46,427 nt of DNA from an uncultured bacterium (GCA_963978095.1 CAXBQP010000022.1:1-46427); one strand, 5' to 3'; positions 10,968 to 35,619 are shown, counted from the stretch's first letter. Translations and numbers: made by a program. Notes: generated from the sequence alone by a model not told the origin.

Positions 10968-10977
10968 CCGCACACCA

Positions 10978-19142: not shown

Positions 19143-20764
19143 CCGCCCAGCGGCGTGAAACGGTTCTGACCTTCGGCGTGATCGTCGTCCTGTTCGGCAT
19201 CCTGCTCTGGCCCGAGCGCGGCTATGTGCCGCTCTGGGATGGGCATGTGTATGCCAACTGCGTCGTGGACGCCGCCACGATGCACGGGTTCGCACTCAAC
19301 AGTCTGCGGTGCGCGGGACACCCGTCGTACGGTTGGGCCGCGATCCTCACGCTCTCGCAGCTGTCGTCGCCCGGTGATTCGGCGATGCTGCTGTTGATGA
19401 ACGCATTGTTGGGGATGCTCGCCTTGGTGTCGTTCCGGGCGATCGGCGCTGGGCTGTTTCCCGGTGAAGCGCATGCCCGTCCGTTGAATGTTCTCACCGT
19501 GGCCTGCGCGGTCCACCCCGTGCTGTTGTCGACGCTGGTGCAGGTGAATGTCGATTTCGGGGTGTATGTCTTCTTCCTGGCGACGTACGCGGCACTGTTG
19601 CACGATCGGTATGACTGGGCGGCGGTCGCCGGCACGTTCCTCGCGTTCAGCAAGGAGACAGGCGCGTTCGCGGCGGGTGCCCTGGTGACTGTTGAGGTCC
19701 TGCGACGGTGGCTGGATCCCGCACTGCGCGGCATGCCAGCACGTGCGCGGCTCGCGCGCGTGTCACCGATCTGGCCGGCGTTCCTCCCCCTGATGCTCTT
19801 CGGCGCCTATCTGATCTGGTGGACGAGCGGCGCGAATGTCCGTCCTGCGATCTGGAAACATGATTGGAATACGTCGACGTCCGATGCCTTCCGGTTCTTC
19901 GATCTGGCCGATCCGGTATTCGTCAGCTACGCCGCGGGGATCTTCGTCCTCGGCTTCTGCTGGATTGTCAGCGCCATCATCGTTGGTGACAGCGTGGTGG
20001 GAGGCTACCGATTCCTCCGCCGTCGTGCGCCTCGCCCGTTGGAGGGTGGGGACGAAACGACCGTGGTGTCCCTCGCCGTGCTCACGTTCGTGCTCACGTA
20101 TGTGCTCACCGCGTTCCGCACGTGGAGCAACGTGCGGTATTTCGCGGTCCTGTATCCGTTATACCTCCTGTTGGCGTATGCGGCGCTGGTCCGCTTGCAG
20201 GTTCGTCCGGCCGGGCGTGTGCTCGCCGGCGGGATCCTCGCGGGATTGTTCGGGCTCGGCGCGGTCCGGTCGGTGGATCCGGTGTCACAGGCGGTGTACG
20301 GCACCTTTTCCATCGGTGACCGCGTGATGTACACGATGACATCCATCACCGGTGAGTTCGGTGGCCCCGGGCGCGACGAGCTCGTGTACAACTTGGAGTT
20401 CACGGGGTTCCACCACCTGCAGAATGCCCTGTTCCGGGAGCTGCGGGTGGGGGATTCGACCTGGATCGCGACCTCACGCTCTGTGCGCTGGCAGCTGTGG
20501 AGCCAGCTCGATTCGCGCACCCGTCGACGCTCCCTGCGACGGGAGGACGTCATCGTCCCGCGCTATGCGGATGACATCGAGCTCCAGGCGAATCCCCAGC
20601 GGCCGACGGACGTGGTGTTCCTCGAGTTCAGCAATCACGAGTACGGGGACCATGCGTTGGCGTCGCTCACGCGCCGCTATTATCGGGACGCGGGCATCGC
20701 CCGGATCCATCTCAACGGTCACCTGCTGGTGGCGCATCATCTGGTGCTTCGAACCCTCCAATAG
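19139..20764 (+). CDS. Polytopic GT-C-like membrane protein (paralog of 14402..15982)
   Basis: ATGA overlap at 19139. PLWDG, RCAGHP, FSKETG, SNVRYF, GRDELVYNL. Confidence 0.62.
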   Translation: MTAQRRETVLTFGVIVVLFGILLWPERGYVPLWDGHVYANCVVDAATMHGFALNSLRCAGHPSYGWAAILTLSQLSSPGDSAMLLLMNALLGMLALVSFRAIGAGLFPGEAHARPLNVLTVACAVHPVLLSTLVQVNVDFGVYVFFLATYAALLHDRYDWAAVAGTFLAFSKETGAFAAGALVTVEVLRRWLDPALRGMPARARLARVSPIWPAFLPLMLFGAYLIWWTSGANVRPAIWKHDWNTSTSDAFRFFDLADPVFVSYAAGIFVLGFCWIVSAIIVGDSVVGGYRFLRRRAPRPLEGGDETTVVSLAVLTFVLTYVLTAFRTWSNVRYFAVLYPLYLLLAYAALVRLQVRPAGRVLAGGILAGLFGLGAVRSVDPVSQAVYGTFSIGDRVMYTMTSITGEFGGPGRDELVYNLEFTGFHHLQNALFRELRVGDSTWIATSRSVRWQLWSQLDSRTRRRSLRREDVIVPRYADDIELQANPQRPTDVVFLEFSNHEYGDHALASLTRRYYRDAGIARIHLNGHLLVAHHLVLRTLQ

Positions 20765-20808
20765 CTAGCTTCGGGGATGCCGAAATGCCTGCGCGCGGGA
20801 GCCATGTC

Positions 20809-21582
20809 GTGAAGGCGGTCATTCTGGCCGGTGGGTTGGGGACGCGGCTCTCTGAGGAAACCGAGCGGCGCCCCAAGCCGATGGTGGAGATCGGCGGACA
20901 TCCGATGCTCTGGCACATCATGCGACGCTATGCCGCGTTCGGCATCACCGAATTCGTCATCGCCTTGGGATACAAGGCCGAAGTCGCGCGCCGGTGGTTC
21001 CTCGACTATCGCGACGCCGGGGGCGATCTCACGGTCAACCTCGGCACGGGCGAGGTCACGCCGCATGCCACGAGCCGCGATGCCTGGACGGTGCATCTCG
21101 TCGATACCGGGCTGATGACCCAAACCGGAGGGCGGCTCGCGCGACTCCGTCCCTGGATCCGGGACGACACTTTCTGCATGACCTACGGCGACGGGATCGG
21201 CGACATCGATATCGAGGCGCTGGTGAACTTTCACCGGCGCCACGCGGCCAAGGCCACGGTCACGGCGGTTCGCCCGCCCGCCCGTTTCGGCAGCCTCACG
21301 CTCGATGGCACCCGGGTGCAAGCCTTCGCGGAGAAGCAGTACCAGACCGCCGAGGGGTGGATCAACGGCGGGTTCTTCGTGCTGGAGCCCTCGGTGCTGG
21401 ACTTGATCCCGGGTGACGATACTCTGTGGGAACGTGAACCGATGGAAGCGCTCGCCGCAGGCGGCGAGTTGCATGCGTATCGACACGAGGGCTTCTGGCA
21501 GCCCATGGATACGCTCCGTGAACTCCGACTGCTCGAGTCGCTCTGGCAGAGCGGCAACGCCCCTTGGATACCCAAACCATGA
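20809..21582 (+). CDS. rfbF: Glucose-1-phosphate cytidylyltransferase
   Basis: [64 protein letters not shown] start at 20809. Confidence 0.93.
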
Positions 21583-22562
21583 CGACGCATTCGCATTGGC
21601 GCGACCGCCCCGTACTCGTCACCGGTGCCACCGGCTTCCTCGGCGGATGGCTGGTCGACGCCCTGGTGCGCTCCGGCGCCACCGTCACGGCGATTGTCCG
21701 TGACGCTGTCCCCCAGAGCATGCTGTTCACCGGCGATGCCCTCCGCGCGGTGCACGTGGTGCGGGGCGATGTCCGCAATCAGGCGCTGCTCGAACGCGTC
21801 ATGGGCGAATACGAGATCGACACGGTGTTCCATCTGGCGGCGCAGACGACGGTCGTGGTGGCCAATCGGAACCCGGTGTCGACCTTCGATACGAATCTGC
21901 GGGGCACCTGGGCGGTCCTGGAGGCGGCACGCCGCAGCCCGTTGGTCAAGGCCGTCGTGACGGCGTCGAGCGACAAAGCATACGGCGATCACGACGTGCT
22001 GCCGTACGAAGAGGACGCGCCGCTGAAGGGCGTGCATCCGTACGATGCGAGCAAGTCGTGCGCCGACATCATCGCCACTTCGTTCGCCCGGACGTTTGAG
22101 GTACCGGTTGCGATCACCCGGTGCGGAAACTTTTTCGGGGGTGGGGACTTCAACTGGAATCGGCTCGTCCCGGGAACGATCCGTGCGGCGTTGCGCGGTT
22201 CGCGGCCCGTCATCCGCTCGGATGGGACGATGGTTCGCGACTATTTCTATGTCGAAGATGCCGTCGGTGCCTATCTGTGCTTGGCCGAACAGCTGCACGG
22301 ACGGCCGGAACTGCGCGGAGAGGCGTTCAACTTCTCGAACGAGTTGCAGGTGGATGTGCTGACGATCGCGCGGAAGATCCTGCAGCGGCTCGACAGCCCC
22401 CTCGAACCGGACGTTCGCGCCGACGCATCGCACGAGATCAAGCACCAGTGGCTGAGTGCCGCCAAGGCGCGACGGGTGCTGGGGTGGTCCTCGACTTTCA
22501 CGCTCGATGCGGGACTCGACCGCACCATCGCGTGGTATCGCGACCACTTCGCACGTGGCTGA
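21579..22562 (+). CDS. CDP-glucose 4,6-dehydratase-like SDR (RfbG/DdhB role)
   Basis: GATGFLG, FHLAAQ, SSDKAY (SDK motif), PYDASK (YxxxK), [15 protein letters not shown]. Lies between rfbF and rfbH. Confidence 0.82.
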
Positions 22563-23895
22563 ACACGACGCGGGCCGGGCGGCGGCACTCCGCGAACAGG
22601 TCCTCGCGTTGGTCGCCGACTATCACGCGGCCTCGCACCCCGCGAGCGCGGCGTTCGTTCCCGGCGAGACCCCGGTTCCGGTCTCCGGACGGGTGTACGA
22701 CGCCAGCGACATGCAGCTGCTGGTGGACGCCGGTCTGGATTTCTGGCTGACCACCGGACGGTTCGCCACCACGTTCGAACGCCGGTTCGCACAGATCATG
22801 GAGACGCGCCACGCGATCCTGGTGAACTCGGGATCGTCCGCCAACCTGCTGGCCGTCACCGCGCTCACCTCGCCACAACTCGGTGAACGCGCCTTGAAGC
22901 CGGGCGACGAAGTCATCACGGTGGCCGCCGGTTTTCCGACGACCGTCAACCCGATCTTCCAGAACGGCCTCGTGCCGGTGTTCGTGGACATCGCATTGCC
23001 ATCGTACGGCATCGATGTGTCGCAGCTCGAGGCCGCGAGGTCCGACCGGACGCGCGCGATCATCGTCGCGCATGCGCTGGGCAATCCGTACGATCTCGAG
23101 GCCGTCGCGACCTTCGCGCAGCAACACGGGCTCTGGCTCATCGAGGATTGCTGCGACGCCGTCGGCGCGCGCTTCGACGGGCGATCGGTCGGCACCTTCG
23201 GCGATCTCGCGACCGTCAGCTTCTATCCGGCGCATCACGTCACGATGGGCGAAGGGGGATGCGTCCTGACGGCATCCCCCAAACTCAAGCGGATCGTGGA
23301 ATCGTTCCGGGATTGGGGGCGCGACTGCTGGTGTGAGACCGGACAGAGCGACACCTGCGGCAAGCGCTTCGGATGGCAACTCGGCGAGCTTCCGCCGTGC
23401 TACGACCACAAATACATCTATTCGCACATCGGCTACAACCTCAAAATCACGGACATGCAGGCGGCCGTCGGCGTGGCGCAGCTGGCGCACCTCGACGGAT
23501 TCATCGCCGCGCGCCGCCGCAATTACGAGATGCTGCGCGCGGAGTTGGATGAACTCTCCGATGTGCTGGAGTTCGCGACGGTCCACCCGAAAGCCGAGCC
23601 GTCGTGGTTCGGATTCCCGATGCGCGTGCGAGAAAGCGCCGGATTCCAGCGGGCGGACCTGGTGCGATTCCTCGAGGGACGGAAGATCGCGACCCGGGTG
23701 CTGTTCGGCGGCAATCTCGTACGGCAGCCGGCCTATGCGGGACGTGCGTTCCGCGTGATTGGTGACCTGGGCAACAGCGATCAGGTCATGCGCGGGACCC
23801 TTTGGATCGGAACGTGGCCAGGGCTGACGGCGCCGATGTTGCGTTGGATGGTGGAAAGCCTTCGCGCGTTCTGTCGCGACGGCGTTCGCGCATAG
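22555..23895 (+). CDS. rfbH: CDP-4-keto-6-deoxy-D-glucose 3-dehydrase (E1, DdhC/AscC)
   Basis: [14 protein letters not shown] has His at the usual Schiff-base Lys position. Fe-S Cys motifs IEDCCDA and RDCWC...DTC. Also [14 protein letters not shown]. Confidence 0.93.
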
Positions 23896-23902
23896 CAAAG
23901 CC

Positions 23903-24853
23903 GTGCTCCGCTCGTTCGTCGGCGCGCTCCCGGTGTTGCGTCCGCTGGTTCGGAAGCTGGCGTTCCGTCGTGCGCGCGCGCTCGTGCACGACCTGGGCGC
24001 AACATTGGAACGACGCGATGACGTGCTCTGGTTGACGCGCAACGGACGGACGATCGTTCTTGCCGACGCCCATCTCCCCTTTGCGCCCGAGATCGCAGCG
24101 GCGTTCGACGACTTTTTCGGCGCCGTCGAGGCGACGACCGACAACCGCCGCCGCGATTTCTCCGTGCCCGCGGAGCACCATGTCGCCGCGCTCGGCGGAC
24201 CCTTCTGGCTCAGCAGTCCGATCGAAGGCATGCGAGTCCTGGAACAGTATGCAAGCGAGATGCGGCCGTCGGCGGGAGATTGCGTGTTCGACCTCGGGGC
24301 GAACTGCGGACTGTCCACGGTGATGCTCGCGCGGCTGGTCGGACCGACCGGGGCGGTGCATGCGTGGGAGCCAGATCCCGGAAATCGCGCCATGCTCGAG
24401 CGGAACGTTGCCCGATACGCACCGACCATCGCTGTCGTGCATCCCGAAGCCATCGGTGGACGGGCGGGCCGCCGATCGTTCACTGCCGAGGCCAGTTTGG
24501 GTGCCGGATTCGCGGCGCTGGTCCCGCGCGCAGGTCTTGCGCCGGTAATCGACGTCCCGGTCGTGACCCTCGAAGGTGCGGCCCAACGGGCGGGTCGCAT
24601 CCCGACGTCGATCAAGATGGATGTCGAAGGCGCGGAACTCGAGATCGTGGAGGCCGCACGTTCGTGGCTACAGGTCCACCGGCCCACCCTCGTGATCGAC
24701 ACGCAGCATCGCATCGCTGGGGCGTACACCGACCGACGGATCGAGGCCCTGCTGTCGGAGATCGGGTACGTGGTGCGGACGCAGGTGACACGTGGGAGCC
24801 GGCTGACCTCCGCGGTTCACCGGGACGCCGTGCGAGGCTCCGCGACCCGGTGA
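23903..24853 (+). CDS. FkbM family SAM-dependent methyltransferase
   Basis: VFDLGANCG, VHAWEPDP.N, IKMDVEGAE. Confidence 0.85.
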   Translation: MLRSFVGALPVLRPLVRKLAFRRARALVHDLGATLERRDDVLWLTRNGRTIVLADAHLPFAPEIAAAFDDFFGAVEATTDNRRRDFSVPAEHHVAALGGPFWLSSPIEGMRVLEQYASEMRPSAGDCVFDLGANCGLSTVMLARLVGPTGAVHAWEPDPGNRAMLERNVARYAPTIAVVHPEAIGGRAGRRSFTAEASLGAGFAALVPRAGLAPVIDVPVVTLEGAAQRAGRIPTSIKMDVEGAELEIVEAARSWLQVHRPTLVIDTQHRIAGAYTDRRIEALLSEIGYVVRTQVTRGSRLTSAVHRDAVRGSATR

Positions 24854-24883
24854 TAGCTTAGAGACAGACTGCGAGGCAACCCC

Positions 24884-25975
24884 GTGATCAACCAAGACCC
24901 GTTCGAGGATCTCTTTGTCCTCGAAATGACCAACAATCATCAGGGACGGCTCGATCGTGCCCTGGCGATCGTTCGTGCACATTCACGCGTGGTGCGGTTC
25001 AACGGAGTACGCGCGGCGATCAAGTTGCAGTTCCGGGACACCGAGCGGTTCGTGCATCCGGCGTTCCGGGACCGGACCGACATTCGCTACATCCGTCGCG
25101 TTATGGAGACGCGGCTCGCCCACGACGACTACCGCACGATCGTGGAGCATATCCGGAAGAACGGCTGCATCCCGATGGCCACGCCGTTCGACGAACGCTC
25201 GGTGGACTTCTGCGTCGAACTCGCGTTGCCGATCATCAAGATCGCGAGCGCGGACAGCAACGACTGGTTGCTCGTCGAGCGCATCGCGGCGACCCGGAAG
25301 CCGGTGATTGTCTCCTTCGGCGGAACTCCGCTCAAGGACATGGATGATCTCGTCACCTTCTTCGAGCGCCGGAACATCCCCCTGGCCATCAATCATTGCG
25401 TCGCAGCGTACCCGCACGAGGATTCGGAAGCGCAGTTGCATCAGATCGATTTCCTGCGACAGCGATATCAGGGCCACACGATCGGGTACTCCTGTCATGA
25501 GTATCACGACTGGACCACCTCCATGCATATCGCGTACGCCAAAGGCGCACGCACCTTCGAACGCCATATCGACATCACCGAAGGAAATGACACGGTCGCC
25601 CCGTATTCATCGCTGCCGGATCAAGTGGATCACTGGTTCAAGGCCTTCCGCAAGGCGCGCGAATTCTGCGGCAATGCGCAGACGACGCGACTGGTGCCGT
25701 TGGATCGCGAGCTCGCCTACCTGGATTCCTATGTCCGCGGCGTCTACGCCGCACGGGACCTGCAGGTCGGCGAGCTGCTGACCGACGCCGACATCTTCAT
25801 GGCGATCCCCCTGCAAAAGGGCCAGTTGTCCACCCGTGAGCTCATGCTCGGCACCTTTGGGCACCGGATGCGTCGCCCATGTCGGCGCGACGAGCCCATC
25901 ACGATCGATCACATCGATACGCCGTACCGCGACCATCCGCAGATGCGGCAGCAGATCCTCGAGCGCGGTATCTGA
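24884..25975 (+). CDS. NeuB/SpsE-family PEP-dependent ulosonate synthase with C-terminal SAF domain (divergent subtype)
   Basis: LEMTNNHQG, IKLQFRD, ATPFDE.SVD, KIASAD, HCVAAYP, GYSCHE, FERH, then RGVYAARDL (SAF). Confidence 0.85.
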   Translation: MINQDPFEDLFVLEMTNNHQGRLDRALAIVRAHSRVVRFNGVRAAIKLQFRDTERFVHPAFRDRTDIRYIRRVMETRLAHDDYRTIVEHIRKNGCIPMATPFDERSVDFCVELALPIIKIASADSNDWLLVERIAATRKPVIVSFGGTPLKDMDDLVTFFERRNIPLAINHCVAAYPHEDSEAQLHQIDFLRQRYQGHTIGYSCHEYHDWTTSMHIAYAKGARTFERHIDITEGNDTVAPYSSLPDQVDHWFKAFRKAREFCGNAQTTRLVPLDRELAYLDSYVRGVYAARDLQVGELLTDADIFMAIPLQKGQLSTRELMLGTFGHRMRRPCRRDEPITIDHIDTPYRDHPQMRQQILERGI

Positions 25976-27795
25976 TGCGCGTCGCCGAGTACCTCATGGA
26001 GCGCGCGGTCGCGCTGGGCGTTGATCAGGCGTTTCTGGTGACCGGCGGCGGCGCGATGTACCTCAATGACGCCATCGGACATACGCCCGGGCTGTCCTGG
26101 CTGTGTACCCATCACGAGCAGGCGGCGGCGATGGCAGCGGAGGGCTATGCGCGCGTCCGTGGCCGGCCTGCATTGTGCAACGTGACCACGGGGCCGGGTG
26201 GCATCAACGCCATCAACGGCGTGTTCGGCGCGTGGACCGACTCGATCCCGATGCTCGTGATCTCCGGTCAGGTCAAGCGCCAAACGGTCGCGGCCAATTT
26301 TCCGGGATCCGGGTTGCGGCAACTCGGCGACCAAGAAGTCGACATCCTCGGCATGGTCCGTGGCATCACCAAGTACGCCGTGTCGCTCGATGCGCCGGGC
26401 GATGCCCGCTACGTGATCGAGCGCGCCCTGCATCTCGCGACCACCGGGCGCCCGGGACCCGTCTGGATCGATGTCCCGATCGATGTGCAGGCCGCCGTGG
26501 CGGATCTCGCGCACATGCGCGCGTACGATCCGGACGACGACTCCGCCGCTGCCCCCCCACCGGTCCGTGAGACGGACGTGCAGGCAATCGTGGCGCGCAT
26601 GGCAACGGCGCAACGGCCGGTCGTCATGGTGGGTTCCGGCGTTCGGATCGCCGGCGCGACCGCCGTACTGCTCGAGGTCGTGCAGGCCCTTGGTGTGCCG
26701 GTCGTCACGGCGTGGACCGCTGTCGACACCGTGCCCACGGATTTCCCGCTCTTCGGTGGGCGCCCGGGAACCGTCGGTGATCGTGCCGGGAATTTCACGG
26801 TGCAGAACAGTGATCTCCTGCTCGTGATCGGGTGTCGCCTCAATATCCGGCAGGTCAGCTATAACTGGAGCGCGTTCGCGCCGCAGGCGTGGATTGCACA
26901 GGTCGACGCGGACGACGCGGAGCTGCGGAAGCCGACCGTGCGGCCGCACCTGCCCGTCCATGCGGACGCTCGGCGATTCCTCGAGTGTCTGCGCGCCCAT
27001 CTCGCGCAGGACGCGTGGGATGCGACGCGGTACGCGCCGTGGGTGCAGTGGGTGCGCGAGCGGGTGCGGCGCTACCCCGTCGTCCAGCCCGCGCAACGCC
27101 TCACGCCCGATGAGTGGGTGAATCCGTATCATGCCCTCGATCGGCTGTTCCAGCTGTTCGCGGACGACGAGGTGATCGTCTGCGGAGATGGTTCCGCGTG
27201 CGTCATCACGAACCAGGTCGCGACCATCCGCGGCACGCAACGCCTCTTCACGAACAGCGGAAGCGCCTCGATGGGCTACGATCTCCCCGCCGCGATAGGT
27301 GCCGCAGTCGCACGTGGTGGCGGTCGTGTCGTCTGCCTGGCGGGCGACGGCAGCGTGCAACTCAATCTCCAGGAACTGCAGACGGTCGCCCATCACCGGC
27401 TTCCCATCACGCTGTTCGTCCTGAACAACGGCGGCTATCTCTCCATGCGGGGATCCCAGCGCGGCGCGTTCGGCCGACTCGTCGGTGCGGACGCGACCAG
27501 CGGGATCTCCTTTCCCGACACGCAGCGCATCGCGGGTGCCTACGGACTCCCGTTTTTCCGCGCCGCTGGTCCCGACTTCGAATCCGCGATGCGTGAGGCG
27601 TTAGCCTGCGGCGGACCGGCTATCTGCGAGGTGGTGCTGGATCCGGCACAGTTGTTCGAGCCGAAGCTGGGCTCGCGCGCACTGGCCGATGGCACCATGG
27701 TCTCACCGCCGCTCGAAGACATGTCACCCCTGCTGAATCGAGCAGAGCTGGCGTCGAACATGGTGTCGTCGATGTCGCCGAAGGTCGACGCATGA
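25975..27795 (+). CDS. ThDP-dependent enzyme, YerE-like (acetolactate synthase superfamily), copy 1
   Basis: GGGAMYLND, HHEQAA (catalytic Glu), TTGPGG, SGQVKR, GRPGPVW, SMGY, GDGS..LNNGGY, PLEDM. TGATG overlap with the NeuB gene. Confidence 0.87.
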   Translation: MRVAEYLMERAVALGVDQAFLVTGGGAMYLNDAIGHTPGLSWLCTHHEQAAAMAAEGYARVRGRPALCNVTTGPGGINAINGVFGAWTDSIPMLVISGQVKRQTVAANFPGSGLRQLGDQEVDILGMVRGITKYAVSLDAPGDARYVIERALHLATTGRPGPVWIDVPIDVQAAVADLAHMRAYDPDDDSAAAPPPVRETDVQAIVARMATAQRPVVMVGSGVRIAGATAVLLEVVQALGVPVVTAWTAVDTVPTDFPLFGGRPGTVGDRAGNFTVQNSDLLLVIGCRLNIRQVSYNWSAFAPQAWIAQVDADDAELRKPTVRPHLPVHADARRFLECLRAHLAQDAWDATRYAPWVQWVRERVRRYPVVQPAQRLTPDEWVNPYHALDRLFQLFADDEVIVCGDGSACVITNQVATIRGTQRLFTNSGSASMGYDLPAAIGAAVARGGGRVVCLAGDGSVQLNLQELQTVAHHRLPITLFVLNNGGYLSMRGSQRGAFGRLVGADATSGISFPDTQRIAGAYGLPFFRAAGPDFESAMREALACGGPAICEVVLDPAQLFEPKLGSRALADGTMVSPPLEDMSPLLNRAELASNMVSSMSPKVDA

Positions 27796-28844
27796 ATCGT
27801 CCCGGTGCGGCGCTCCCCACCGCGGACCTGGTCCACGCCATCGACCACGCGCGCGACGCCATGGAGGCGTGCCGCGGCGCGCGACTGCTGGTGACCGGCG
27901 CCTCGGGATTTGTGGGAAGCTGGCTGCTGGAATCCGCGTTGCATGTGAGTCGGGCCCTGTCACTGGACCTGCAGGTCACCGCGCTCGTCCGCGACCGCGC
28001 TCGCTTCGCGGCGTCCTTGCCGCATTTGGCCACGGCCCCCACGCTGACCCTGGTCGAAGGAGACATCCGCACATGCGAATTGCCGATGCGCGATATCACG
28101 CACATCGTGCACTGTGCCTCGGCGTCGTCCCCGGCGATGGTGGCGGAGCGGCCGGACGAGGTGGTGGACATCATCGAGCGCGGGACCACCCATATGTTGG
28201 AGCTCGCCCGTCAGTCGGCGGGGGTGCGTTTTCTGCAGATGAGCTCGGGTTCCGTGTACGGGCCGCAACCGGGAGGGGTGGGGTCGCTCGCGGAGCGCTT
28301 CGACGGCACCGCCGACCACCGTGATCCGCGCCAACGGTTCGGCGCCGCCAAACGCCGCGCGGAGCAGGCAGGCGAGGCTGCCGTGGCGCAGGGCGTCGCG
28401 TTCGTCAGCGCGCGGGCGTTTGCCTTGGTCGGTCCCCGACTGCCGCTCGACGCGGCGTTTGCCCTCGGCAACTTCCTCGGCGATGCCCTTGCCGGTCGGT
28501 CGATCAGCATCAACAGTGACGGGACGGTCGAACGGTCCTGGCTGCATATGGCAGACCTCACGGCATGGTGCTGGACACTGTTGGCGCGCGGAGTGCCCGG
28601 ACGTGCCTACAACGTCGGCGCCGCGGAGTCGATGTCGCTATGGGAGGCCGCACACCGCGTCGCACGATTGCCCGCGCCGCCGGTCACGGTGCGACGCTTG
28701 CTCGAGCCATCGCCCGGCGTGGAGCCCTCGCGCTATATTCCCGACATAGCCCGTGCGCGCGTTGAGTTGGGACTCGACGCCTGGATTCCGTTCGACGATG
28801 CGATCCGCCGCACTTGGGGCTGGCTTCGGAACCTTCCGGCATGA
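27792..28844 (+). CDS. NAD-dependent epimerase/dehydratase family SDR with Phe at the catalytic Tyr position
   Basis: GASGFVG, SSGSVYG, FGAAK where YxxxK is expected, ARAFALVGP, AYNVG. Confidence 0.82.
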   Translation: MNRPGAALPTADLVHAIDHARDAMEACRGARLLVTGASGFVGSWLLESALHVSRALSLDLQVTALVRDRARFAASLPHLATAPTLTLVEGDIRTCELPMRDITHIVHCASASSPAMVAERPDEVVDIIERGTTHMLELARQSAGVRFLQMSSGSVYGPQPGGVGSLAERFDGTADHRDPRQRFGAAKRRAEQAGEAAVAQGVAFVSARAFALVGPRLPLDAAFALGNFLGDALAGRSISINSDGTVERSWLHMADLTAWCWTLLARGVPGRAYNVGAAESMSLWEAAHRVARLPAPPVTVRRLLEPSPGVEPSRYIPDIARARVELGLDAWIPFDDAIRRTWGWLRNLPA

Positions 28845-31162
28845 CCAGCAGGGAACGCCATCTCCAGATCGGCACGAGACGGATCGGCCCTGGCGAGCCG
28901 TGTTATGTCATCGCGGAAATCGGGTTGAATCACAACGGCAGTCTCGACATTGCCAAGCAGCTGGTCGATGCTGCCGTCGCGGCCGGTGCCGATGCCGTGA
29001 AATTCCAGAAGCGCACACTCGTCGAGACGTATCGCCGGGAGATCCTCGAGCAACCCCGACGTGGAGAGCAGGGGTTGCAATACATCGTGCCCCTGCTGGT
29101 CGAGTTCGAACTGTCGGACGACGATTTCCGGGAGCTCCATCAATATTGCCGGGCCCGCGGTACGACGTTCATGTGCACCCCGTGGGACCTGGGGAGCGTC
29201 GACTTCCTCGAGACGATGGCGCTCGACGGCTACAAGATCGGCTCGCCCGACATGACGAATTTCCCGCTCATCGAACACGTCGTGTCGACGCGGAAACCGC
29301 TGCTGCTCTCCACCGGTATGTCCACGGAAGAGGAGATCCGCCGGACGCTCGCCTATCTCGGTGACCTGAATGCCGATTACGCGCTCTTTCACTGCGTGAG
29401 CACGTATCCGGCCGCGGCGGAAGAGATCAACCTCCGCTTCATGGAGACGCTTCGGGAGTGGTCCGGTCGCCCGGTCGGGTACTCCGGCCATGACACGGGC
29501 ACCGCCATTTCGCTCGCGGCCGTCGCGATGGGCGCGCGAATGCTCGAGCGGCATCTGACGCTGGACCGCTCGATGCGGGGGCCGGACCACAAAGCGAGTC
29601 TCGAGCCCGCCCAGTTTGCCGAACAGGTGCGGGCGGTTCGTGACGTGGAAGCCTCGCTGGGTGCTCCGCATCGCTGGCTCACGCGCGGTGAAACGCTCAA
29701 CCGCCGTACGCTGAGCAAGAGTCTGGTGGCCGCGACATCCATCGGTGCGGGAACTCCGATCACCCGCGCGATGATCGTGAGCAAGAGCCCGGGGCTCGGC
29801 CTCTCGCCGCAGTTCGTGGATCGGCTCGTCGGTCGCACCCTGGACCGCGATCTCGCGCCCGACGATCCCTTTCTGCCGGCGGATCTGGAGGACCGCGAGG
29901 TCTCCGCCGGTTCGGCACGTCCGATCGACGTCGGTACGCCGTGGGGCATCGTCGCGCGCTTCCTCGACCTCCCGGCGCTCGAGGCACGCTTCGCCCCACA
30001 GGGGATGCATTTCGTCGAGTTCCATGTGAGTGACCGCGATCTCGACGCGGGTGCCGAGGCCTACACCGGAGGGACGAAGCCCTACGGACTCGTGATCCAC
30101 GCCCCGGAGTACGCCCATGACGTCCTCATCGATCTCTGCGCGGAGGATGTGGCACAACGCACGCTGAGCGCCGCACGGATCCAGAAGACCGTCGACCTCG
30201 CGCGCGCGCTCGCCCCGCACTTCACGCTGGATCCGGCGGCCTTTCCGCACGGCCCGAAGGTCGTGATGCATGTCGGCGGGATGTGGCCGCGTCCCGGCGG
30301 CTACGATGTTGAAGCAGCCACCATGCGCCTGCTCGACGCGCTCGCCACCATCGACAGCACCGGCGTCGATCTCCTGCTCGAGAACCTTCCTCCGTACCCG
30401 TGGTACTTCGGTGGACGATGGTTCGGGCACGTCGCCTGTGACGCCGAGAACACGGCACGCTTGTGTCGGGAATCGGGCCTCGGGCTCTGCTTCGACACCT
30501 CGCATGCAGCGCTCGAGTGCGCGCGCAGCGGCGCGAGTCTCAAGGCGTTCGCGGAGCAGGTCGCCCCCTACGTCCGTCACCTGCACGTGAGCGATGGCGC
30601 CGGAGTCTCCGGGGAGGGGCTGCAGGTCGGAGAGGGCACCGTGAACTTCGTCGAACTTCTCCCGATCCTCTCAGCCCGTCGCCCAACGATGATCCCCGAG
30701 ATCTGGATGGGGCATCACGAGGCGGGCGCAGGATTCCAGACCGCCCTCGAGCACCTCACCGATGTCCACTGGGCGGACAGCGCCCTGCAACGCGGGACGG
30801 ACGTCGCCTCACGCCCCGATCTCGAGGCCCTGACGGTCGGCCACAGCGCGACGCTCTTCACGGCCCTTCGCGCCATCGATGCCAACCGGATGGGGATCGT
30901 CTTCGTGCTGGACGACACTGGTCGTGTGGTCGGCGTGATGACGGACGGCGACGTCCGCCATTGTTTCGTGCGCGGCTTTGGTCTCCACTCCAGCGTGCGC
31001 GAAGTCATGACCCGCGAGTTCACCTACGGCACGGCGGGCGAATCCGCGGCGGCGCTGCTGGCCAGACTCCCCGGTCGCACCCGCCTCATGCCGATCCTCG
31101 ATGCGAATGGACGGCTGATCGACTACGCCAATCCGGTCCATCTCCCGGAGACCATCGCGTGA
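28841..31162 (+). CDS. NeuB-family synthase fused to SAF, a xylose-isomerase-like TIM barrel and a C-terminal CBS pair
   Basis: IAEIGLNHNG, VKFQKR, KIGS, HCVSTYP, GYSGHD, LERHLTLD, GPDH. SAF starts at SKSLVA. TIM barrel has LLENLPP, CFDTSHA, HLHVSD, PEIW. CBS has GVMTDGDVR. Confidence 0.87.
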   Translation: MTSRERHLQIGTRRIGPGEPCYVIAEIGLNHNGSLDIAKQLVDAAVAAGADAVKFQKRTLVETYRREILEQPRRGEQGLQYIVPLLVEFELSDDDFRELHQYCRARGTTFMCTPWDLGSVDFLETMALDGYKIGSPDMTNFPLIEHVVSTRKPLLLSTGMSTEEEIRRTLAYLGDLNADYALFHCVSTYPAAAEEINLRFMETLREWSGRPVGYSGHDTGTAISLAAVAMGARMLERHLTLDRSMRGPDHKASLEPAQFAEQVRAVRDVEASLGAPHRWLTRGETLNRRTLSKSLVAATSIGAGTPITRAMIVSKSPGLGLSPQFVDRLVGRTLDRDLAPDDPFLPADLEDREVSAGSARPIDVGTPWGIVARFLDLPALEARFAPQGMHFVEFHVSDRDLDAGAEAYTGGTKPYGLVIHAPEYAHDVLIDLCAEDVAQRTLSAARIQKTVDLARALAPHFTLDPAAFPHGPKVVMHVGGMWPRPGGYDVEAATMRLLDALATIDSTGVDLLLENLPPYPWYFGGRWFGHVACDAENTARLCRESGLGLCFDTSHAALECARSGASLKAFAEQVAPYVRHLHVSDGAGVSGEGLQVGEGTVNFVELLPILSARRPTMIPEIWMGHHEAGAGFQTALEHLTDVHWADSALQRGTDVASRPDLEALTVGHSATLFTALRAIDANRMGIVFVLDDTGRVVGVMTDGDVRHCFVRGFGLHSSVREVMTREFTYGTAGESAAALLARLPGRTRLMPILDANGRLIDYANPVHLPETIA

Positions 31163-32970
31163 CGGTGAAACTTTCCGATTGGGTGTTCGCGTCGCTCAAG
31201 CGCGAAGGGGTGCGACAGGTCTTCGAGCTCACGGGTGGCGGCGCCATGCATCTCAACGATTCCCTCGGGGCGAGCGGGATCGAGTACATCTGCATGGTGC
31301 ATGAGCAAGGGGCAGCGATGGCCGCCGAGTCCTATGCGAAGTTCACTGGGGACATCGGGGTCTGCCTCGTCACGACGGGACCCGGCGGCACGAACGCGAT
31401 GACCGGCGTTGCCGCCGCATGGGCCGATTCGACGCCGATGCTTGTGCTCTCGGGGCAGGTGAAACGCGCCGACTTGGTCGGCACGACCGGCGTCCGTCAG
31501 ATGGGTGTGCAGGAGATCGATGTCGTGGCGATGGCGCGTCCCATCACCAAGCTCGCGCTCACGGTCCTCGAGCCGTCGCAGATTCGCTATCACCTCGAGC
31601 ACGCGCTCTGGCTCGCCCGCACGGGACGGCCTGGCCCGGTCTGGCTCGACATCCCGATCGACGTGCAAGGGGCGATGATCGACGAAACGTCACTCCCCGG
31701 ATTCAGCCCTCCCGAGACCCCGGTCGAAGGGCTCACGCCGTCAGCGGAGCTCGTCGCGAGCGTCACGCGTACGCTCGACGCCCTGACGCGGAGCGAACGA
31801 CCCGTGGTGTTGATCGGGAATGGCGTCCGCCTCGGCCACGCGCGCTCCGCCATGCGGACCCTGATCGCGCGACTCGGTGTCCCAGTGCTCACGACCTGGC
31901 TCGCCCACGATCTGGTCGCCGATGACCATCCGTTGATGATGGGACGCCCAGGGCCCGTCGCGCCTCGCGGTGCGAACTTCACGCTGCAGAACGCCGATTG
32001 GCTCCTGACGCTCGGCGTGCGCCTTGGGACCGTTGTCACCGGCTACGCACCGCACCACTACGCGCGTGCAGCCTTCAAGACCATGGTCGACATCGATGCC
32101 GCGGAAGTACGGAAGCTCGGCGCCACCATCCAGGAGCCCGTGTGCGCCGACGTCGCGCAGTACATCGCCGAGATGCACCGGCAGCTCGAGGCGCGCGCCG
32201 CGATCGCTCCGCCCACGGCATGGCACGACCGCTGCGTCCTGTGGAAGACCACGTACCCCGTGATCCAGCCGGAGTACCGGCATCGCTCAGACGGTGTCAG
32301 CACGTATGTGTTGGCCGAGGCGATCGCGGCGGCCTCCGGGCCAGAGCAACTATTCGTATCCGGAAGCTCGGGCGCCGGGATCGAGATCTTTTGTCTCGCC
32401 CTGACGCTCACGGACGGTCAGCGGCTCTATCTCTCTCCCGCACTCGGATCGATGGGGAACGCGATCCCCGCCGTGATCGGGGGATGCATCGCCAACGACC
32501 GACGGCCGACGATCACCGTCGACGGCGACGGCGGATTCCAGTTGAACGTGCAGGAACTCGAAGTCGCCCGCCGGTTGCAGCTGCCGGTGAAGCTCTTCGT
32601 TCTCAACAACGATGGATACGCCTCGATCCGGACCTCCCAGAGCCGCTATTTCGGCCGACTGGCCGGCGCTGATGCCACGAGCGGTGTTACGCAGCCGCCG
32701 CTCGAGGGGATCGCTCGCGCCTTCGGCGTCGAGTATGCCCGCATCGAGACCGATGCGGACCTCACGGCACAGGTGCGCGCCCTGATCGACGCGCCGGGGC
32801 CGTGCGTGATCGAAGTCATCACCCCGCGTGATGAACCCCGAGCGCCGAGCTTGTCGTCGGTGCGCCGGCCCGACGGCTCCATGGTATCGCGTCCGCTCGA
32901 GGACCTCTGGCCCTTCCTGCCGCGCGACGAATTCCTGGCGAACATGATCATCCCGGCGCTGCCGGACTGA
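31159..32970 (+). CDS. ThDP-dependent enzyme, YerE-like, copy 2
   Basis: GGGAMHLND, VHEQGA, TTGPGG, SGQVKR, GRPGPVW, GSMG, DGDGG..LNNDGY, PLEDL. GTG 31159 overlaps the upstream stop. Confidence 0.87.
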   Translation: MTVKLSDWVFASLKREGVRQVFELTGGGAMHLNDSLGASGIEYICMVHEQGAAMAAESYAKFTGDIGVCLVTTGPGGTNAMTGVAAAWADSTPMLVLSGQVKRADLVGTTGVRQMGVQEIDVVAMARPITKLALTVLEPSQIRYHLEHALWLARTGRPGPVWLDIPIDVQGAMIDETSLPGFSPPETPVEGLTPSAELVASVTRTLDALTRSERPVVLIGNGVRLGHARSAMRTLIARLGVPVLTTWLAHDLVADDHPLMMGRPGPVAPRGANFTLQNADWLLTLGVRLGTVVTGYAPHHYARAAFKTMVDIDAAEVRKLGATIQEPVCADVAQYIAEMHRQLEARAAIAPPTAWHDRCVLWKTTYPVIQPEYRHRSDGVSTYVLAEAIAAASGPEQLFVSGSSGAGIEIFCLALTLTDGQRLYLSPALGSMGNAIPAVIGGCIANDRRPTITVDGDGGFQLNVQELEVARRLQLPVKLFVLNNDGYASIRTSQSRYFGRLAGADATSGVTQPPLEGIARAFGVEYARIETDADLTAQVRALIDAPGPCVIEVITPRDEPRAPSLSSVRRPDGSMVSRPLEDLWPFLPRDEFLANMIIPALPD

Positions 32971-32997
32971 CCGGCCAGGGGAGGAGCTGCGGCCAAC

Positions 32998-34236
32998 TCA
33001 GCGCGGCGACGCGAACCGCTCCACCAACCGCTCCACTGGGACAGCGTAGCACACCAGTTCCCAGCAGTCCTCGGCGTACCGCCGCACGAAGAGCCGGTAA
33101 TCCGGTTGGATGCGGTGGATCAACCTCGGGATCTCCCACAGGTGCTCGGAGCGGTGGTAGACGCAGATCGCCAGTACCGGACGACGGGTCCGCAGAGTTC
33201 CCGCGCCCCCGGTGATCGCCATCGGTTCCGCTCCCTCGATGTCCATCTTGATGAAGGTCGGTGACTCCTGCGCGAAGAGCGTGTCGAGTCGTCGGCAATC
33301 GATTGAGACATCACCGTCGGTCGAGAGCAGGGTCGAGCCGGCGTTGTGCGTGGCCCGGAAAGAGAACGTCGCGTCCTGATCGCTGACGCCGTACGGCAGC
33401 GCCGTGATCCTCGCTGCGGCTTCGGTGGGGAGCGTGGCCATCCATCCGCGCAACGCGGCGCGATTGTCGGCGTCGGGCTCGAGCAGGAACATCCGTCCGA
33501 AAGCGCCGCCGCGCCGCGCGAGGAAGGCCCGCGCGCTGTCACCGTCGAACGCTCCGCAATCGACGAACACTTCCTCCGCGAGCGGTACGACCACGTCGTC
33601 CGGGAAGTACGTGTCGGCCCCCGGTTGATGCGCCGAGAGGATGCTGCCCGCAGGATGGAAGCGCCACAGGAGCTGCTCGCAGAACTCGCGGCGTGAGGCA
33701 TCGTCGGCGAGCACTGCGAATCCGGCACGGATGGCTCCCTCCTGCTCCACGAGCCGGTGGGGCAGGTCGGTACACGACGACGGGATGAACTGCGTCGCGT
33801 ACTTCCAGAACAGGTGGATCACCGGTGCGATCCGTGGGAATCCAGCCGACCGGAGCTGCGCCGTGACGGTCGAGCCGTGATAGACGGTCACCACCACGCA
33901 GGACGTGGCACCATGACGCGCGAGCGCATCAACCGGCGAGAGCACCGGGAGCCCTTCAACCGTCGTGCCCCAGATCTCGGGATTGTTGTCGATGAACGCG
34001 ATCGGTTCCACGCCAGCCTTCCGCAATCCGTTCAACACGAACCGACCGAGCCATCCGGCTCCGAACAGCAACAGCGCATCACTGAACGGCGCCGCGACGG
34101 CGTCGAAGCTGTGCGCCTCCCGTTCCCGAACCGCAGCCGGCGACTCGGCGTGGAGCCGCTCGAACACCAGGTCGATCCAGCGATCCGATGGAAGTTGCGA
34201 AAACAGCGTGCGGGGATCGGTATCGGAACGTGCCAT
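32998..34236 (-). CDS. FkbM family methyltransferase with N-terminal Rossmann-like domain
   Basis: N-terminal LLFGAGWLG..IAFIDNN, then FVDCGAFDGDS, LEPD..N, FIKMDIEGAE, LAICVYH. Confidence 0.87.
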   Translation of the reverse strand: MARSDTDPRTLFSQLPSDRWIDLVFERLHAESPAAVREREAHSFDAVAAPFSDALLLFGAGWLGRFVLNGLRKAGVEPIAFIDNNPEIWGTTVEGLPVLSPVDALARHGATSCVVVTVYHGSTVTAQLRSAGFPRIAPVIHLFWKYATQFIPSSCTDLPHRLVEQEGAIRAGFAVLADDASRREFCEQLLWRFHPAGSILSAHQPGADTYFPDDVVVPLAEEVFVDCGAFDGDSARAFLARRGGAFGRMFLLEPDADNRAALRGWMATLPTEAAARITALPYGVSDQDATFSFRATHNAGSTLLSTDGDVSIDCRRLDTLFAQESPTFIKMDIEGAEPMAITGGAGTLRTRRPVLAICVYHRSEHLWEIPRLIHRIQPDYRLFVRRYAEDCWELVCYAVPVERLVERFASPR

Positions 34237-34317: not shown

Positions 34318-35619
34318 TCAGGCCTGCAACCGGACGGCCCGATGTGCGCGAAACAGCAGGAAGACCGGCACCAGAGCGATCAGCCCACTCCCTCCGTAGC
34401 CGATGGCAGCACCCGTGGCGCCGCCGAGAATCCCACCACTGATCCCCCCGAGTGCCATCGCCGCGCACGCGGCGACCACCGGTGTCCGCATGGCCTCATC
34501 GCGGAACGAGCGGGCCCACGCGGACATCGATTGCAGGAGGAGCACCGCCAGTGCGCCCGAGAGCATCGCACCGGTTGCCGCGAATGGCAGCACGCGCACC
34601 CCCAGCACCGGCACCCAGCGCAAGAGCGCGACGGGGAGCAGCAACACCGCAACCGCCGCCGCCCCGAAGACGAGGAGGGTCTGGCCCAGTGCCTGCGCGG
34701 CGGCACGGTCGAACTCGCGGAGCCGTTGCGTTGCCACGAGTGTTCCGAACGTCGGCAACCGCGCATGCAGCCACGCACCCGCGAGCCACGCCGGCGCCAT
34801 CGTCAGTGCGAGCGTGAGTCCGAACCGACCGGCGTGATCGCCGCCGTGCGCCACCAGCAATACCGGAGCGATCGCCTGCGACGCGAACTGCAACGCGAGC
34901 CAGAGTTGCGCGCTGCGGCGTTGCTCGAGGTCCAATTTTCCTGCCAGCGTGGTATCCTGCGTCCCCGCAAGATTCGAGGGAAGTGTCGTGGGGGCGCGCA
35001 GCAAGCCGCGACGCGTGAGCACGAGCCAGCCGCCGGCGATCCCGATCTGCACGAACGCCGCCAGCCAGCAGGCGAGCAGCGCGTGATGTTGCAGGAGCCC
35101 TGACCACAGGGCGAGCAGGACTCCCCCCGCTTGTACCGCGCGCATGTGCTGCAGCGGCACTTGCGCGCCGGTCCCTTCGCAGATCGCGAGGAACGGTACG
35201 ATCACGATGTAGGCCGCCACCAGCACAATGGTCGACAACCACAGTACGAGGAATCCCAGCGACTCCTGACGCGGGGCGTACACGAAGGCACCGCCGACAC
35301 CGGCCACGGCCAGCACCAGCAGTGCGAGGCGCACGTGCCATCGGAGCGCCGTGTGCAGCAGCACGCTGATGGCGGTGCGCGCATGTACACCGCCCGTGAG
35401 TTGCCCGCCGGCGGACCACTGGAGCCGGCCCGCCTCGTGACTCGCGAATTGCACCAGGATCGTCGCGGGCCCCATTTCCATGAACGGCGCCAACGTCACC
35501 ACGCCCAGGAGCACGAAATACAGCCCCTGATCGGCGGTGTGCAGGCGTGCGGCCACCAACCACAAGGTGATCGGCGCCCCGCCAAGGCTGATGGCTCGAC
35601 TGAGCACGGCCCCACGCAC
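34318..35619 (-). CDS. Wzx-like polysaccharide/lipid-linked sugar flippase
   Basis: About 12 hydrophobic helices. DQGLYF...EMG...LVQFASHE resembles the N-terminus of an O-antigen flippase family. Start uncertain (GTG 35619, or near 35664). Confidence 0.65.
   Translation of the reverse strand: MRGAVLSRAISLGGAPITLWLVAARLHTADQGLYFVLLGVVTLAPFMEMGPATILVQFASHEAGRLQWSAGGQLTGGVHARTAISVLLHTALRWHVRLALLVLAVAGVGGAFVYAPRQESLGFLVLWLSTIVLVAAYIVIVPFLAICEGTGAQVPLQHMRAVQAGGVLLALWSGLLQHHALLACWLAAFVQIGIAGGWLVLTRRGLLRAPTTLPSNLAGTQDTTLAGKLDLEQRRSAQLWLALQFASQAIAPVLLVAHGGDHAGRFGLTLALTMAPAWLAGAWLHARLPTFGTLVATQRLREFDRAAAQALGQTLLVFGAAAVAVLLLPVALLRWVPVLGVRVLPFAATGAMLSGALAVLLLQSMSAWARSFRDEAMRTPVVAACAAMALGGISGGILGGATGAAIGYGGSGLIALVPVFLLFRAHRAVRLQA

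Follow-up and report, generated by a model that had tools for sequence, protein, structure and literature searches.

A candidate surface-glycan locus of an uncultured Gemmatimonadaceae bacterium, predicted to couple NeuB-type synthases to YerE-like carboligases

Known branched-sugar pathways and the locus under study

Caryophyllose, erwiniose and gastriose belong to the 3,6-dideoxy sugars with long branches, which are rarely met as surface epitopes and the route to which was only outlined in 2022. According to a unifying scheme that has been demonstrated in part, pyruvate aldolases supply γ-hydroxy α-keto acids, which YerE-like enzymes dependent on thiamine diphosphate (ThDP) decarboxylate and ligate to CDP-4-keto-3,6-dideoxyglucose before a reductase acts (Steitz et al. 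2022, PMC9306805). Here, a stretch of 46,427 nucleotides from an uncultured bacterium (GCA_963978095.1, CAXBQP010000022.1:1-46427; hereafter the window) is described, which carries a related locus with phosphoenolpyruvate (PEP)-dependent synthases of the NeuB family. The region between about 14.4 and 36.6 kb is probably a surface-glycan locus for CDP-3,6-dideoxyhexoses that would carry a long hydroxylated side chain at C4, built by two parallel modules in which a NeuB synthase feeds a ThDP enzyme; an extended short-chain dehydrogenase/reductase (SDR), FkbM-family methyltransferases, a family 2 glycosyltransferase (GT2), the membrane protein memX and GT-C-type proteins would then complete and export the sugars.

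The scheme covers the systems for erwiniose (ErwI/ErwJ/ErwE/ErwF), caryophyllose (MMAR_2331/MMAR_2332) and gastriose (MygI/MyGE/MygF). It was reported that ErwE, MMAR_2332 and MyGE accept γ-hydroxy α-keto acids and that ErwE rejects pyruvate, and ErwI was compared with BphI-type aldolases (PMC9306805). In the yersiniose A pathway of Yersinia pseudotuberculosis, RfbF/G/H-type genes likewise feed a ThDP carboligase acting at C4, YerE, which is followed by a reductase, YerF; YerE uses pyruvate and gives a two-carbon branch, whereas the branch proposed for the window is longer. Another YerE-like, ketone-accepting carboligase is JanthE of Janthinobacterium sp. HH01 (PDB 8rph, also 8rpi and 8rpj), for which a wide donor range has been described (PMC12247030, PMC12188165) and the physiological substrates were reported as unknown (PMC12188165).

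The window shares with the clusters of Steitz et al. genes for a CDP-3,6-dideoxy-4-ketohexose and for a ThDP enzyme of the YerE-like kind, next to which stands a gene proposed to supply the γ-hydroxy α-keto acid; the extended SDR is a candidate for their NAD(P)H reductase, and the product would likewise enter a surface glycan. It differs from them in having NeuB-family synthases in place of the pyruvate aldolases, no aldolase family matching any window open reading frame (ORF) scanned, and in having two donor/ligase modules, one NeuB fused to TIM-barrel and CBS domains, two FkbM genes and an apparent polyprenyl-phosphate GT2/GT-C export system. Among solved structures, JanthE comes nearest to ThDP-1 and ThDP-2 (460 and 373 bits). 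The two synthases have the PF03102 fold of NeuB, PseI and LegI, and NeuB-2 also their SAF domain; unlike those systems, both lie under the equivalog cut-offs, no NeuA, NeuC or aminosugar gene accompanies them, and a ThDP partner stands downstream. In short, the synthesis of acyl-branched dideoxy sugars is known; the proposed replacement of the aldolase by NeuB-type synthases, one of them TIM/CBS-fused, and the stacking of two modules in one operon appear to be new. A literature search returned no paper linking NeuB-type synthases with YerE-like enzymes, though surveys of YerE-like clusters lay partly outside it. A phylogeny paper on nonulosonate synthases had no mention of thiamine, acetolactate, Gemmatimonadota or Verrucomicrobia, and the supplement of Steitz et al. 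none of dehydroquinate, neuraminate, sialic, NeuB, phosphatase or methyltransferase.

The window corresponds to contig C22; the assembly to which it belongs (G000) comprises 2.98 Mb in 101 contigs and is 91% complete. Its GC content is 64-70%, and the nearest relatives of its genes are found in Gemmatimonas and in Gemmatimonadaceae metagenome-assembled genomes (MAGs); the host is a soil-type Gemmatimonadota bacterium of the family Gemmatimonadaceae. The core of the locus is a tightly packed operon of RfbF, an RfbG-like gene, RfbH, FkbM1, NeuB-1, ThDP-1, the extended SDR, the NeuB-2 fusion and ThDP-2, towards which FkbM2 converges. Genes were identified by Pfam and NCBIfam profile scans, with the equivalog cut-offs of the NCBIfam/TIGRFAM models, and these scans bore out the gene list given for 20809..34236 in an earlier note on this DNA, except that the ORF of RfbF starts at 20785 and not at 20809. 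The overlaps seen earlier at 25975 and 31159 are real: the stop codon TGA of NeuB-1 (24884..25975, plus strand) at 25973-25975 shares one base with the ATG of ThDP-1 (25975..27795, plus) at 25975 (TGATG, 25973-25977), and the TGA of the NeuB-2 fusion (28841..31162, alternative start 28814, plus) at 31160-31162 overlaps the in-frame GTG of ThDP-2 (31159..32970, plus) at 31159 (GTGA, 31159-31162). The start of the extended SDR (27792..28844, plus; PF01370) overlaps the stop of ThDP-1.

In the proposed pathway, RfbF, the RfbG-like dehydratase and RfbH would, by the known roles of their families, provide the acceptor CDP-4-keto-3,6-dideoxyhexose. Each NeuB would condense PEP with an aldose or aldose phosphate to a 3-deoxy-2-ulosonic acid, and the translationally coupled ThDP enzyme would decarboxylate this acid and attach the acyl anion so formed at C4 of the CDP-linked keto sugar. 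Module 1 (FkbM1, NeuB-1 and ThDP-1) and module 2 (the NeuB-2 fusion with SAF, TIM and CBS domains, and ThDP-2) would act in parallel. The extended SDR would reduce the side-chain keto group, as YerF does, and the two FkbM enzymes would presumably O-methylate the product, after which GT2 would load the sugar on polyprenyl phosphate, memX would flip it, and GT-C-like membrane proteins would transfer it to an extracytoplasmic acceptor. The sequences themselves show what the genes are, how the operon is built, that the pairing is conserved, how the modules have come and gone, and that NeuA and NeuC are missing from the assembly; the chemistry of all steps is inferred, as are substrates and chain lengths and the view that the two products are separate sugars. 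The earlier note had proposed that the NeuB products are ThDP donors and not sialic-acid-like end products. That proposal gains support from the pairing of NeuB and ThDP genes, the match of their clades, an exchange of ThDP for NeuA in related loci and a variable donor slot; its chemical logic of a decarboxylated 2-keto-3-deoxy acid is not new, since it is that already published for erwiniose, caryophyllose and gastriose (PMC9306805).

The ThDP and NeuB enzymes and their pairing

Both ThDP proteins carry the three domains of their family (PF02776, PF00205 and PF02775), are 41% identical to each other and are predicted to be YerE/JanthE-like carboligases, ThDP-2 belonging to a second clade. The ThDP motif GDG-x-NN lies at residue 458 of ThDP-1 and 456 of ThDP-2, where JanthE has CDG; HEQ is found near the N-terminus, with the catalytic glutamate in place. 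ThDP-1 aligns end to end with JanthE (8rph) at 460 bits, as compared with 232 bits for plant acetohydroxyacid synthase (AHAS) and 214 bits for 5ahk, which we take to be PpYerE; the values for ThDP-2 are 372.6 bits for JanthE, 245 for 5ahk and 235 for AHAS. Taken by itself, 5ahk (214 and 245 bits) gives no better match than AHAS does. The two proteins reach 326-327 bits on TIGR00118, the equivalog model for AHAS (cut-off 538), and the single genes in three comparison genomes 689-865 bits. No AHAS small-subunit gene stands beside either ThDP gene, the neighbours being NeuB and SDR genes. In a maximum-likelihood tree of 73 ThDP proteins, from which five duplicate rows had been removed, four AHAS rows split off with a support of 98 in the SH-like approximate likelihood ratio test (SH-aLRT). 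It had been suggested that clustering with true AHAS would refute the proposed pathway; when this was checked, both enzymes fell outside, and true AHAS was rejected on the higher JanthE scores, the position below the TIGR00118 cut-off and the separation in the tree. In the same tree, 56 ThDP genes adjoining NeuB-1 form one clade (SH-aLRT 99) and seven partners of NeuB-2 fusions a second (SH-aLRT 100); the ThDP partner of a NeuB2-like gene that is not fused groups with the latter. Row L011, on a very long branch, is an exception. A separate ThDP clade thus goes with each type of NeuB in this tree.

The AHAS cut-off is reached by no gene in G000, where the best match outside the operon is partial and lies on contig C37; in a same-genus, 100% complete genome (G204), a candidate of 497 bits lies on contig C9. 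The AHAS gene ilvB may be absent from the assembled part of the window genome.

NeuB-1 is a divergent member of the family, predicted to be a PEP-dependent ulosonate synthase of a 3G8R-like subfamily (PF03102, 127.7 bits). It reaches 110 bits on the NeuB model TIGR03569 (cut-off 400) and 118 on the PseI model TIGR03586 (cut-off 340). Its closest solved relative is PDB 3g8r (223.6 bits over residues 9-344, other NeuB/PseI chains giving at most 69), presumably from Chromobacterium violaceum, deposited as 'probable spore coat polysaccharide biosynthesis protein E' in an entry that gives no function. The subfamily is very large (at least 7994 proteins at E ≤ 1e-20 among 8000 candidates scored) and unusually conserved, with 60-76% identity across phyla.

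The earlier note had proposed co-occurrence across genomes as a check, and the pairing was found to recur in many phyla. A one-genome-per-species scan was made for NeuB-1 loci, and the best 80 of 105 relatives (60-90% identity) were searched for gene content by tblastn with the window proteins; they come from Gemmatimonadota, Verrucomicrobiota, Planctomycetota, Chloroflexota, Acidobacteriota, Pseudomonadota and others. A ThDP-1/2-like gene is present in 63 of the 80, and in 42 of the 45 that have at least 6 kb on both sides; the genomes of the remaining three and of one further locus (four of four) hold a gene of the ThDP-1 clade elsewhere (52-58% identity). RfbH occurs in 25 of the same 45 loci. 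The extended SDR has a homologue together with the ThDP gene in 48 of the 80, and GT2 one of at least 40% identity in 34, as well as in NeuB-free neighbourhoods. The extended SDR travels with the ThDP gene and is, by this context, a candidate for the YerF/ErwF-type reductase. Among 251 Verrucomicrobiota genomes, sampled with thresholds of E ≤ 1e-120 for ThDP and E ≤ 1e-60 for NeuB-1, a ThDP-1-like gene was found in 44 and a NeuB1-like gene in 13; the nine genomes with both have them on the same contig in every case, 0.6-2.8 kb apart.

The partners of NeuB-1 were counted in those 54 loci that have 3 kb or more of sequence to each side. A gene resembling dehydroquinate synthase (DHQS) together with a short-chain SDR occurs in 40 of them (among others L015, L033, L056, L060 and L072), a HAD phosphatase in five, neither in nine and both in none. 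Because two types of enzyme acting on phosphate esters alternate in this position, it is suggested that NeuB-1 condenses PEP with a sugar phosphate. The mutual exclusion of the two partners suggests alternative ways of processing a phosphorylated ulosonate; by analogy with the known mechanism of DHQS, phosphate elimination by the DHQS-like enzyme and reduction of the keto group would give an ω-deoxy polyhydroxy keto acid, a donor of the caryophyllose type. Candidates for these partners elsewhere in the window genome were rejected, being only a 30%-identical gene of the DHQS family and generic short-chain dehydrogenases.

NeuB-2 is fused to a SAF domain, an AP_endonuc_2 (xylose-isomerase-like) TIM barrel and a CBS pair. 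It scores 265.5 bits on PF03102, 158-159 bits against Neisseria NeuB, 321 bits on TIGR03569 (cut-off 400) and 222 bits on TIGR03586 (cut-off 340). A threshold of E ≤ 1e-10 gave 335 relatives; nearly all of the 120 matches listed share the architecture, and the named ones are mostly Gemmatimonadota. A metagenome scan for such fusions gave 57 loci. In 13 of these the fusion is close to that of the window (about 70% identity or more); all five with enough downstream DNA continue into a ThDP-2 gene, an SDR homologue stands directly upstream in nine of the 13, and none of the 13 loci has a NeuA-like gene. In 12 loci with distant CBS-NeuB-SAF-TIM fusions (33-52% identity) there is no ThDP gene, and a NeuA-like cytidylyltransferase gene lies directly beside the fusion in eight (L114 at 9252-12211, L099, L100, L102, L118, L123, L124 and L133), drawn from two lineages. 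These NeuA-associated loci look like a CMP-ulosonate pathway, so far uncharacterised, that shares the TIM domain. In L114 the NeuA-like gene and the fusion overlap, flanked by genes for glycosyltransferases and by a Wzy-like one.

A sequence search of the PDB with the TIM domain gave at best 27 bits, for MJ1311. Its AlphaFold model (pLDDT 78.4) gave similar TM scores, near 0.6, for ketose 3-epimerases, for endonuclease IV and for rhamnose isomerase, which indicates the fold class only. The CBS pair resembles that of KpsF/GutQ, and in parallel fusions from Verrucomicrobiota NeuB is joined to a cupin with a weak match to D-lyxose isomerase. It is these three features, the TIM fold, the CBS pair and the cupin, that suggest an isomerase supplying the aldose of NeuB-2; the TIM/CBS part is probably a sugar isomerase or epimerase serving that purpose. 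A free-standing AP_endonuc_2 gene, also xylose-isomerase-like, lies at 3538-4455 (plus) in the window, 25 kb upstream of the fusion, and adjoins a response-regulator/HisKA gene.

Ten Verrucomicrobiota neighbourhoods were fetched for gene content. Four hold a bare chassis of RfbF, RfbG, RfbH, ThDP, GT2 and SDR with no extra gene. One (L162) has an HMGL-like gene between RfbH and ThDP, of PF00682, which we take to be the Pfam family of BphI-type aldolases. In another (L161:7603-12402, genome G561), a class I/II aminotransferase on the RfbFGH/GT2/SDR chassis precedes a tandem pair of YerE-like ThDP genes that share 39% and 46% identity with ThDP-1, and two (L165 and L166) have the NeuB-cupin fusion followed by a ThDP-2-like gene. 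Of the others, L160 shows only RfbH and ThDP with a weak RfbG-like match, and in L163 genes of the melibiase and UPF0047 families precede ThDP, GT2 and SDR. If the donor came from the product of the gene beside ThDP, one would predict just such variation of this neighbour on a constant chassis. Radical-SAM/SPASM, NUDIX and C-methyltransferase-like genes were seen in L165 (4292-8036) and L166 (2714-8238), with a B12-binding radical-SAM gene in L166 only; their presence suggests further tailoring of the branched sugar.

A conventional nonulosonate route was not found in the 91%-complete assembly, nor any aminosugar gene. The claim that NeuA, NeuC and sialyltransferase are missing from the window held for the ORFs scanned, none of which matched a sialyltransferase family, and PF02350 (NeuC) has no match in the whole assembly. 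The whole-genome search for neuA/kdsB-like genes, likewise proposed earlier, found PF02348 (the NeuA/KdsB family) at two contig ends only, C46 25286-25828 and C47 23746-24117 (loci L001 and L002); these are two halves of one kdsB, the C-terminal half adjoining pyrG, and a hidden NeuA was rejected on that ground. Contigs C46 and C47 are probably adjacent in the genome. PF03102 has three matches in the assembly, namely NeuB-1, NeuB-2 and a housekeeping synthase of 3-deoxy-D-arabino-heptulosonate 7-phosphate (DAHP). The last (L155:3768-4913 on contig C23, with PF00793 and an FXD domain) passes the Pfam NeuB cut-off at 30 bits and was rejected as a third NeuB; because DAHP synthase also matches the model, counts of NeuB by PF03102 alone are too high.

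The two modules and competing explanations

In the window and in a Gemmatimonas MAG locus (L005), FkbM1, NeuB-1 and ThDP-1 form a 3.9-kb block between RfbH and the SDR, and both modules are present in the same order. In G204, RfbH ends 73 bp before the SDR, which is followed by the NeuB-2 fusion and ThDP-2, with FkbM2, memX and GT2 on the opposite strand and the same P526, FAD oxidoreductase, memA and memB genes upstream; this genome has module 2 only, with no FkbM1 between RfbH and the SDR. No NeuB-1 orthologue was found anywhere in genomes G204 and G349. Two Gemmatimonadota loci (L003 and L004) have module 1 only, and among 401 Gemmatimonadota genomes the fusion occurs in three, a NeuB-1-type gene in four, and both in the window genome alone. 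The ratio of non-synonymous to synonymous substitutions (dN/dS) between the window and L005 is 0.07-0.28 for all 15 locus genes, at a dS of 0.75-1.27, which is close to saturation. From this low ratio in all 15 genes it follows that both modules are kept by selection, and since the modules also occur alone elsewhere, two parallel side chains are favoured over one serial pathway. The two NeuB/ThDP pairs are independent modules and more probably yield two distinct side chains than serve one pathway together; a single pathway to a single sugar, which the title of the earlier note implied, gave way to this reading when each module was found alone on the same chassis in other genomes.

The GC content is 0.638-0.650 over the FkbM1-NeuB1 part of 23903-27795, with flanks at 0.66-0.68. 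NeuB-1 is 67-72% identical to Verrucomicrobiota sequences and 41-53% to the other NeuB1-type genes in the 401 Gemmatimonadota genomes. The lower GC and the higher identity to Verrucomicrobiota are consistent with a lateral acquisition of module 1.

A more far-reaching proposal, offered only tentatively, is that each NeuB-ThDP pair is a plug-in module, exchangeable for others on a chassis (RfbFGH, SDR and polyprenyl-phosphate GT2) that is itself widespread. By exchanging the gene in the donor slot, bacteria would vary the side chain of a dideoxy sugar branched at C4. NeuB-1 would act on a sugar phosphate in the manner of DAHP or Kdo8P synthase, a DHQS-like partner would lead to an ω-deoxy chain of the caryophyllose type and a HAD partner to an ω-hydroxyl, and the window, by stacking two modules, might make two higher-carbon O-methylated branched sugars from one CDP-keto intermediate. 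In this plug-in proposal the slot would be empty or be filled by an aldolase, by an aminotransferase, by NeuB-1 together with either a HAD phosphatase or a DHQS-like enzyme and short SDR, or by a NeuB-cupin or NeuB-TIM-CBS fusion. It would, by extension, also point to the physiological donor of JanthE.

Several observations weigh against the proposed donor role of the NeuB products. The evidence that links NeuB to ThDP is co-occurrence, and JanthE accepts pyruvate in vitro (PMC12247030), so that a short branch is possible. Of the 44 Verrucomicrobiota genomes with a ThDP-1-like gene, 35 have no NeuB1-like gene, and four of eight fetched neighbourhoods of such NeuB1-less genomes hold no donor gene; for both reasons the wider YerE-like group can work without NeuB, and from the ThDP side, in this genome sample, the pairing does not hold generally. 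Another ThDP type (31-34% identity) is found in four NeuB-1 loci from proteobacteria. In the window itself, one extended SDR would have to serve two modules, and NeuB-1 is without its DHQS-like, short SDR or HAD partners, FkbM1 being its only one. The E3-type reductase domain PF00175 (DdhD/AscD-type in the yersiniose system) has no match in the assembly, although the control found it in 11 of 14 reference genomes, which bears on how RfbH is reduced and on the exact acceptor. The missing 9% of the genome could hold NeuA, an E3 reductase, a phosphatase or an aldolase. Finally, G204, of the same genus, does have NeuA, adjoining its own NeuB in a classical cluster on another contig that comprises a dehydratase-family gene (Polysacc_synt_2, PF02719), NeuB, NeuA and an aminotransferase.

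These points bear on four other explanations. The two enzyme types could have independent products, the ThDP enzymes adding a short, pyruvate-derived acetyl branch as in yersiniose and the ulosonic acids entering the glycan otherwise, e.g., via KdsB or an unrecognised activating enzyme. The common NeuB-free chassis and the use of pyruvate by JanthE would both fit this, as would the kdsB in the genome and the 321 bits of the NeuB-2 N-terminal part on the NeuB equivalog model, not far under the cut-off of about 400. It is nevertheless rather unlikely, given that the NeuB and ThDP genes overlap and the ThDP clades follow the NeuB type, that related NeuB-TIM fusions lacking ThDP have a NeuA-like neighbour which ThDP-linked loci never have, that no NeuC was found in the assembly, and that the sole PF02348 gene of a complete Verrucomicrobia genome which carries the NeuB-1 cassette lies 2 Mb from it. 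That ThDP enzymes merely turn the NeuB products into 2-deoxy-aldoses, unconnected to the CDP-sugar, appears very improbable. ThDP enzymes of the decarboxylase superfamily often release aldehydes, but the nearest characterised relative, JanthE, is a ketone-accepting carboligase, the ThDP gene directly follows RfbH in the minimal chassis, and RfbH is frequent in the NeuB-1 loci, at the count given above.

The order of steps might also be reversed, with the ThDP enzyme first installing a short keto or aldehyde-bearing branch that NeuB would extend with PEP on the nucleotide sugar. Gene order and co-occurrence are blind to the order of steps, and the aldehyde that NeuB needs could conceivably be a formyl branch derived from glyoxylate. 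Such a reversal seems quite improbable, as its product would retain an α-keto acid end on which one more enzyme would have to act, small sugars or sugar phosphates are the substrates suggested by the TIM, cupin, HAD and DHQS-like partners of NeuB, and for erwiniose, where the order was examined in vitro, ErwE rejects pyruvate and accepts a pre-formed keto acid (PMC9306805). The two modules could, lastly, act in succession on the same sugar, by iterative extension or by a second ligation onto the new ketone, and yield a very long or doubly branched sugar. The single operon, SDR and GT2, the retention of the double arrangement in L005 under purifying selection and the tandem ThDP genes of L161 are in keeping with such a series. 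It is unlikely, however, in view of module 2 occurring alone with a full chassis in G204 and in the 13 metagenome loci, of module 1 alone in L003, L004 and most of the 80 loci, and of the restriction of both to one of the 401 Gemmatimonadota genomes. The parallel coupling of each NeuB to its own ThDP enzyme remains the preferred reading.

The remaining genes of the locus and the meaning of the pairing

RfbF, a glucose-1-phosphate cytidylyltransferase, occupies 20785..21582 (plus) and exceeds the TIGR02623 cut-off of 300 with 364.7 bits. The RfbG-like NDP-hexose 4,6-dehydratase, an extended SDR (21564..22562, plus; PF01370, PF16363), has been only partly confirmed as such: the CDP-glucose 4,6-dehydratase model TIGR02622 is its top-scoring model, yet its 220.9 bits lie under the equivalog cut-off of 278.45. 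RfbH (E1), the CDP-4-keto-6-deoxyglucose 3-dehydrase (22456..23895, plus), reaches 702.6 bits on NF011936 (cut-off 423) in a match covering ORF residues 42-474, and its true start is probably later than that of the listed ORF. FkbM1 (23903..24853, plus; PF05050, TIGR01444) is the first gene of the inserted module 1. FkbM2 (32998..34236, minus; PF05050, TIGR01444) has an N-terminal extension with a weakly NeuD-like N-terminus and is kept in G204, L005, L088 and L091.

Codon-position GC and hydropathy extend the locus both ways, to P526, the FAD oxidoreductase, memA and memB upstream and, on the minus strand, FkbM2, memX and GT2 downstream. P526 (14402..15982, plus) was recognised on these two measures as a polytopic membrane protein with at least eight hydrophobic segments; it has no Pfam match, is 32% identical to its paralogue memB and has a 37% paralogue on contig C6, and is kept upstream of the operon in L005 and G204. 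It is followed by an FAD/NAD-binding, amine-oxidase-like oxidoreductase (15979..17622, plus; PF01593, PF13450; NF005546, 737.8 bits), which has the same position in L005 and G204 at 88% identity. A 1003-residue ORF at 17753-20764 was found to be two genes in different frames, with a frame change near 19100 by codon-position GC. The first is memA (17619..19142, plus), a polytopic membrane protein with seven hydrophobic segments that is weakly PMT_2/ArnT-like (GT-C), its PF13231 match of E 2e-4 being under the cut-off; the second is memB (19139..20764, plus), a polytopic membrane protein with no Pfam match and, like P526, a candidate GT-C-type transferase.

On the minus strand, memX (34318..35556, start uncertain between 35481 and 35619) was delimited by codon-position GC and hydropathy. 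It has 10 hydrophobic segments and no Pfam match, adjoins GT2 in G204, L004, L088 and L091, and is a candidate flippase for the lipid-linked sugar. GT2 (35661..36635, minus; PF00535) resembles polyprenyl-phosphate glycosyltransferases of the ArnC/PgfS type, with 185 bits on NF047588 and 107 on NF007986, both under the cut-off, and two C-terminal hydrophobic segments. Beyond it, a 669-residue ORF at 37017-39026 (plus) has an M42 peptidase domain only in residues 373-661; its N-terminal 370 residues are without a Pfam match, and its start may be overcalled.

If the proposed coupling is true, many annotations of 'sialic acid synthase' and 'acetolactate synthase' in uncultured bacteria would be mis-named, and the potential for sialic acid would be overestimated where it is deduced from neuB only. 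Biocatalysis would gain natural chiral polyhydroxy α-keto acid donors together with matched carboligases, and the missing physiological substrate of JanthE may be among these donors. The double module would also represent a natural test of donor specificity within one cell.

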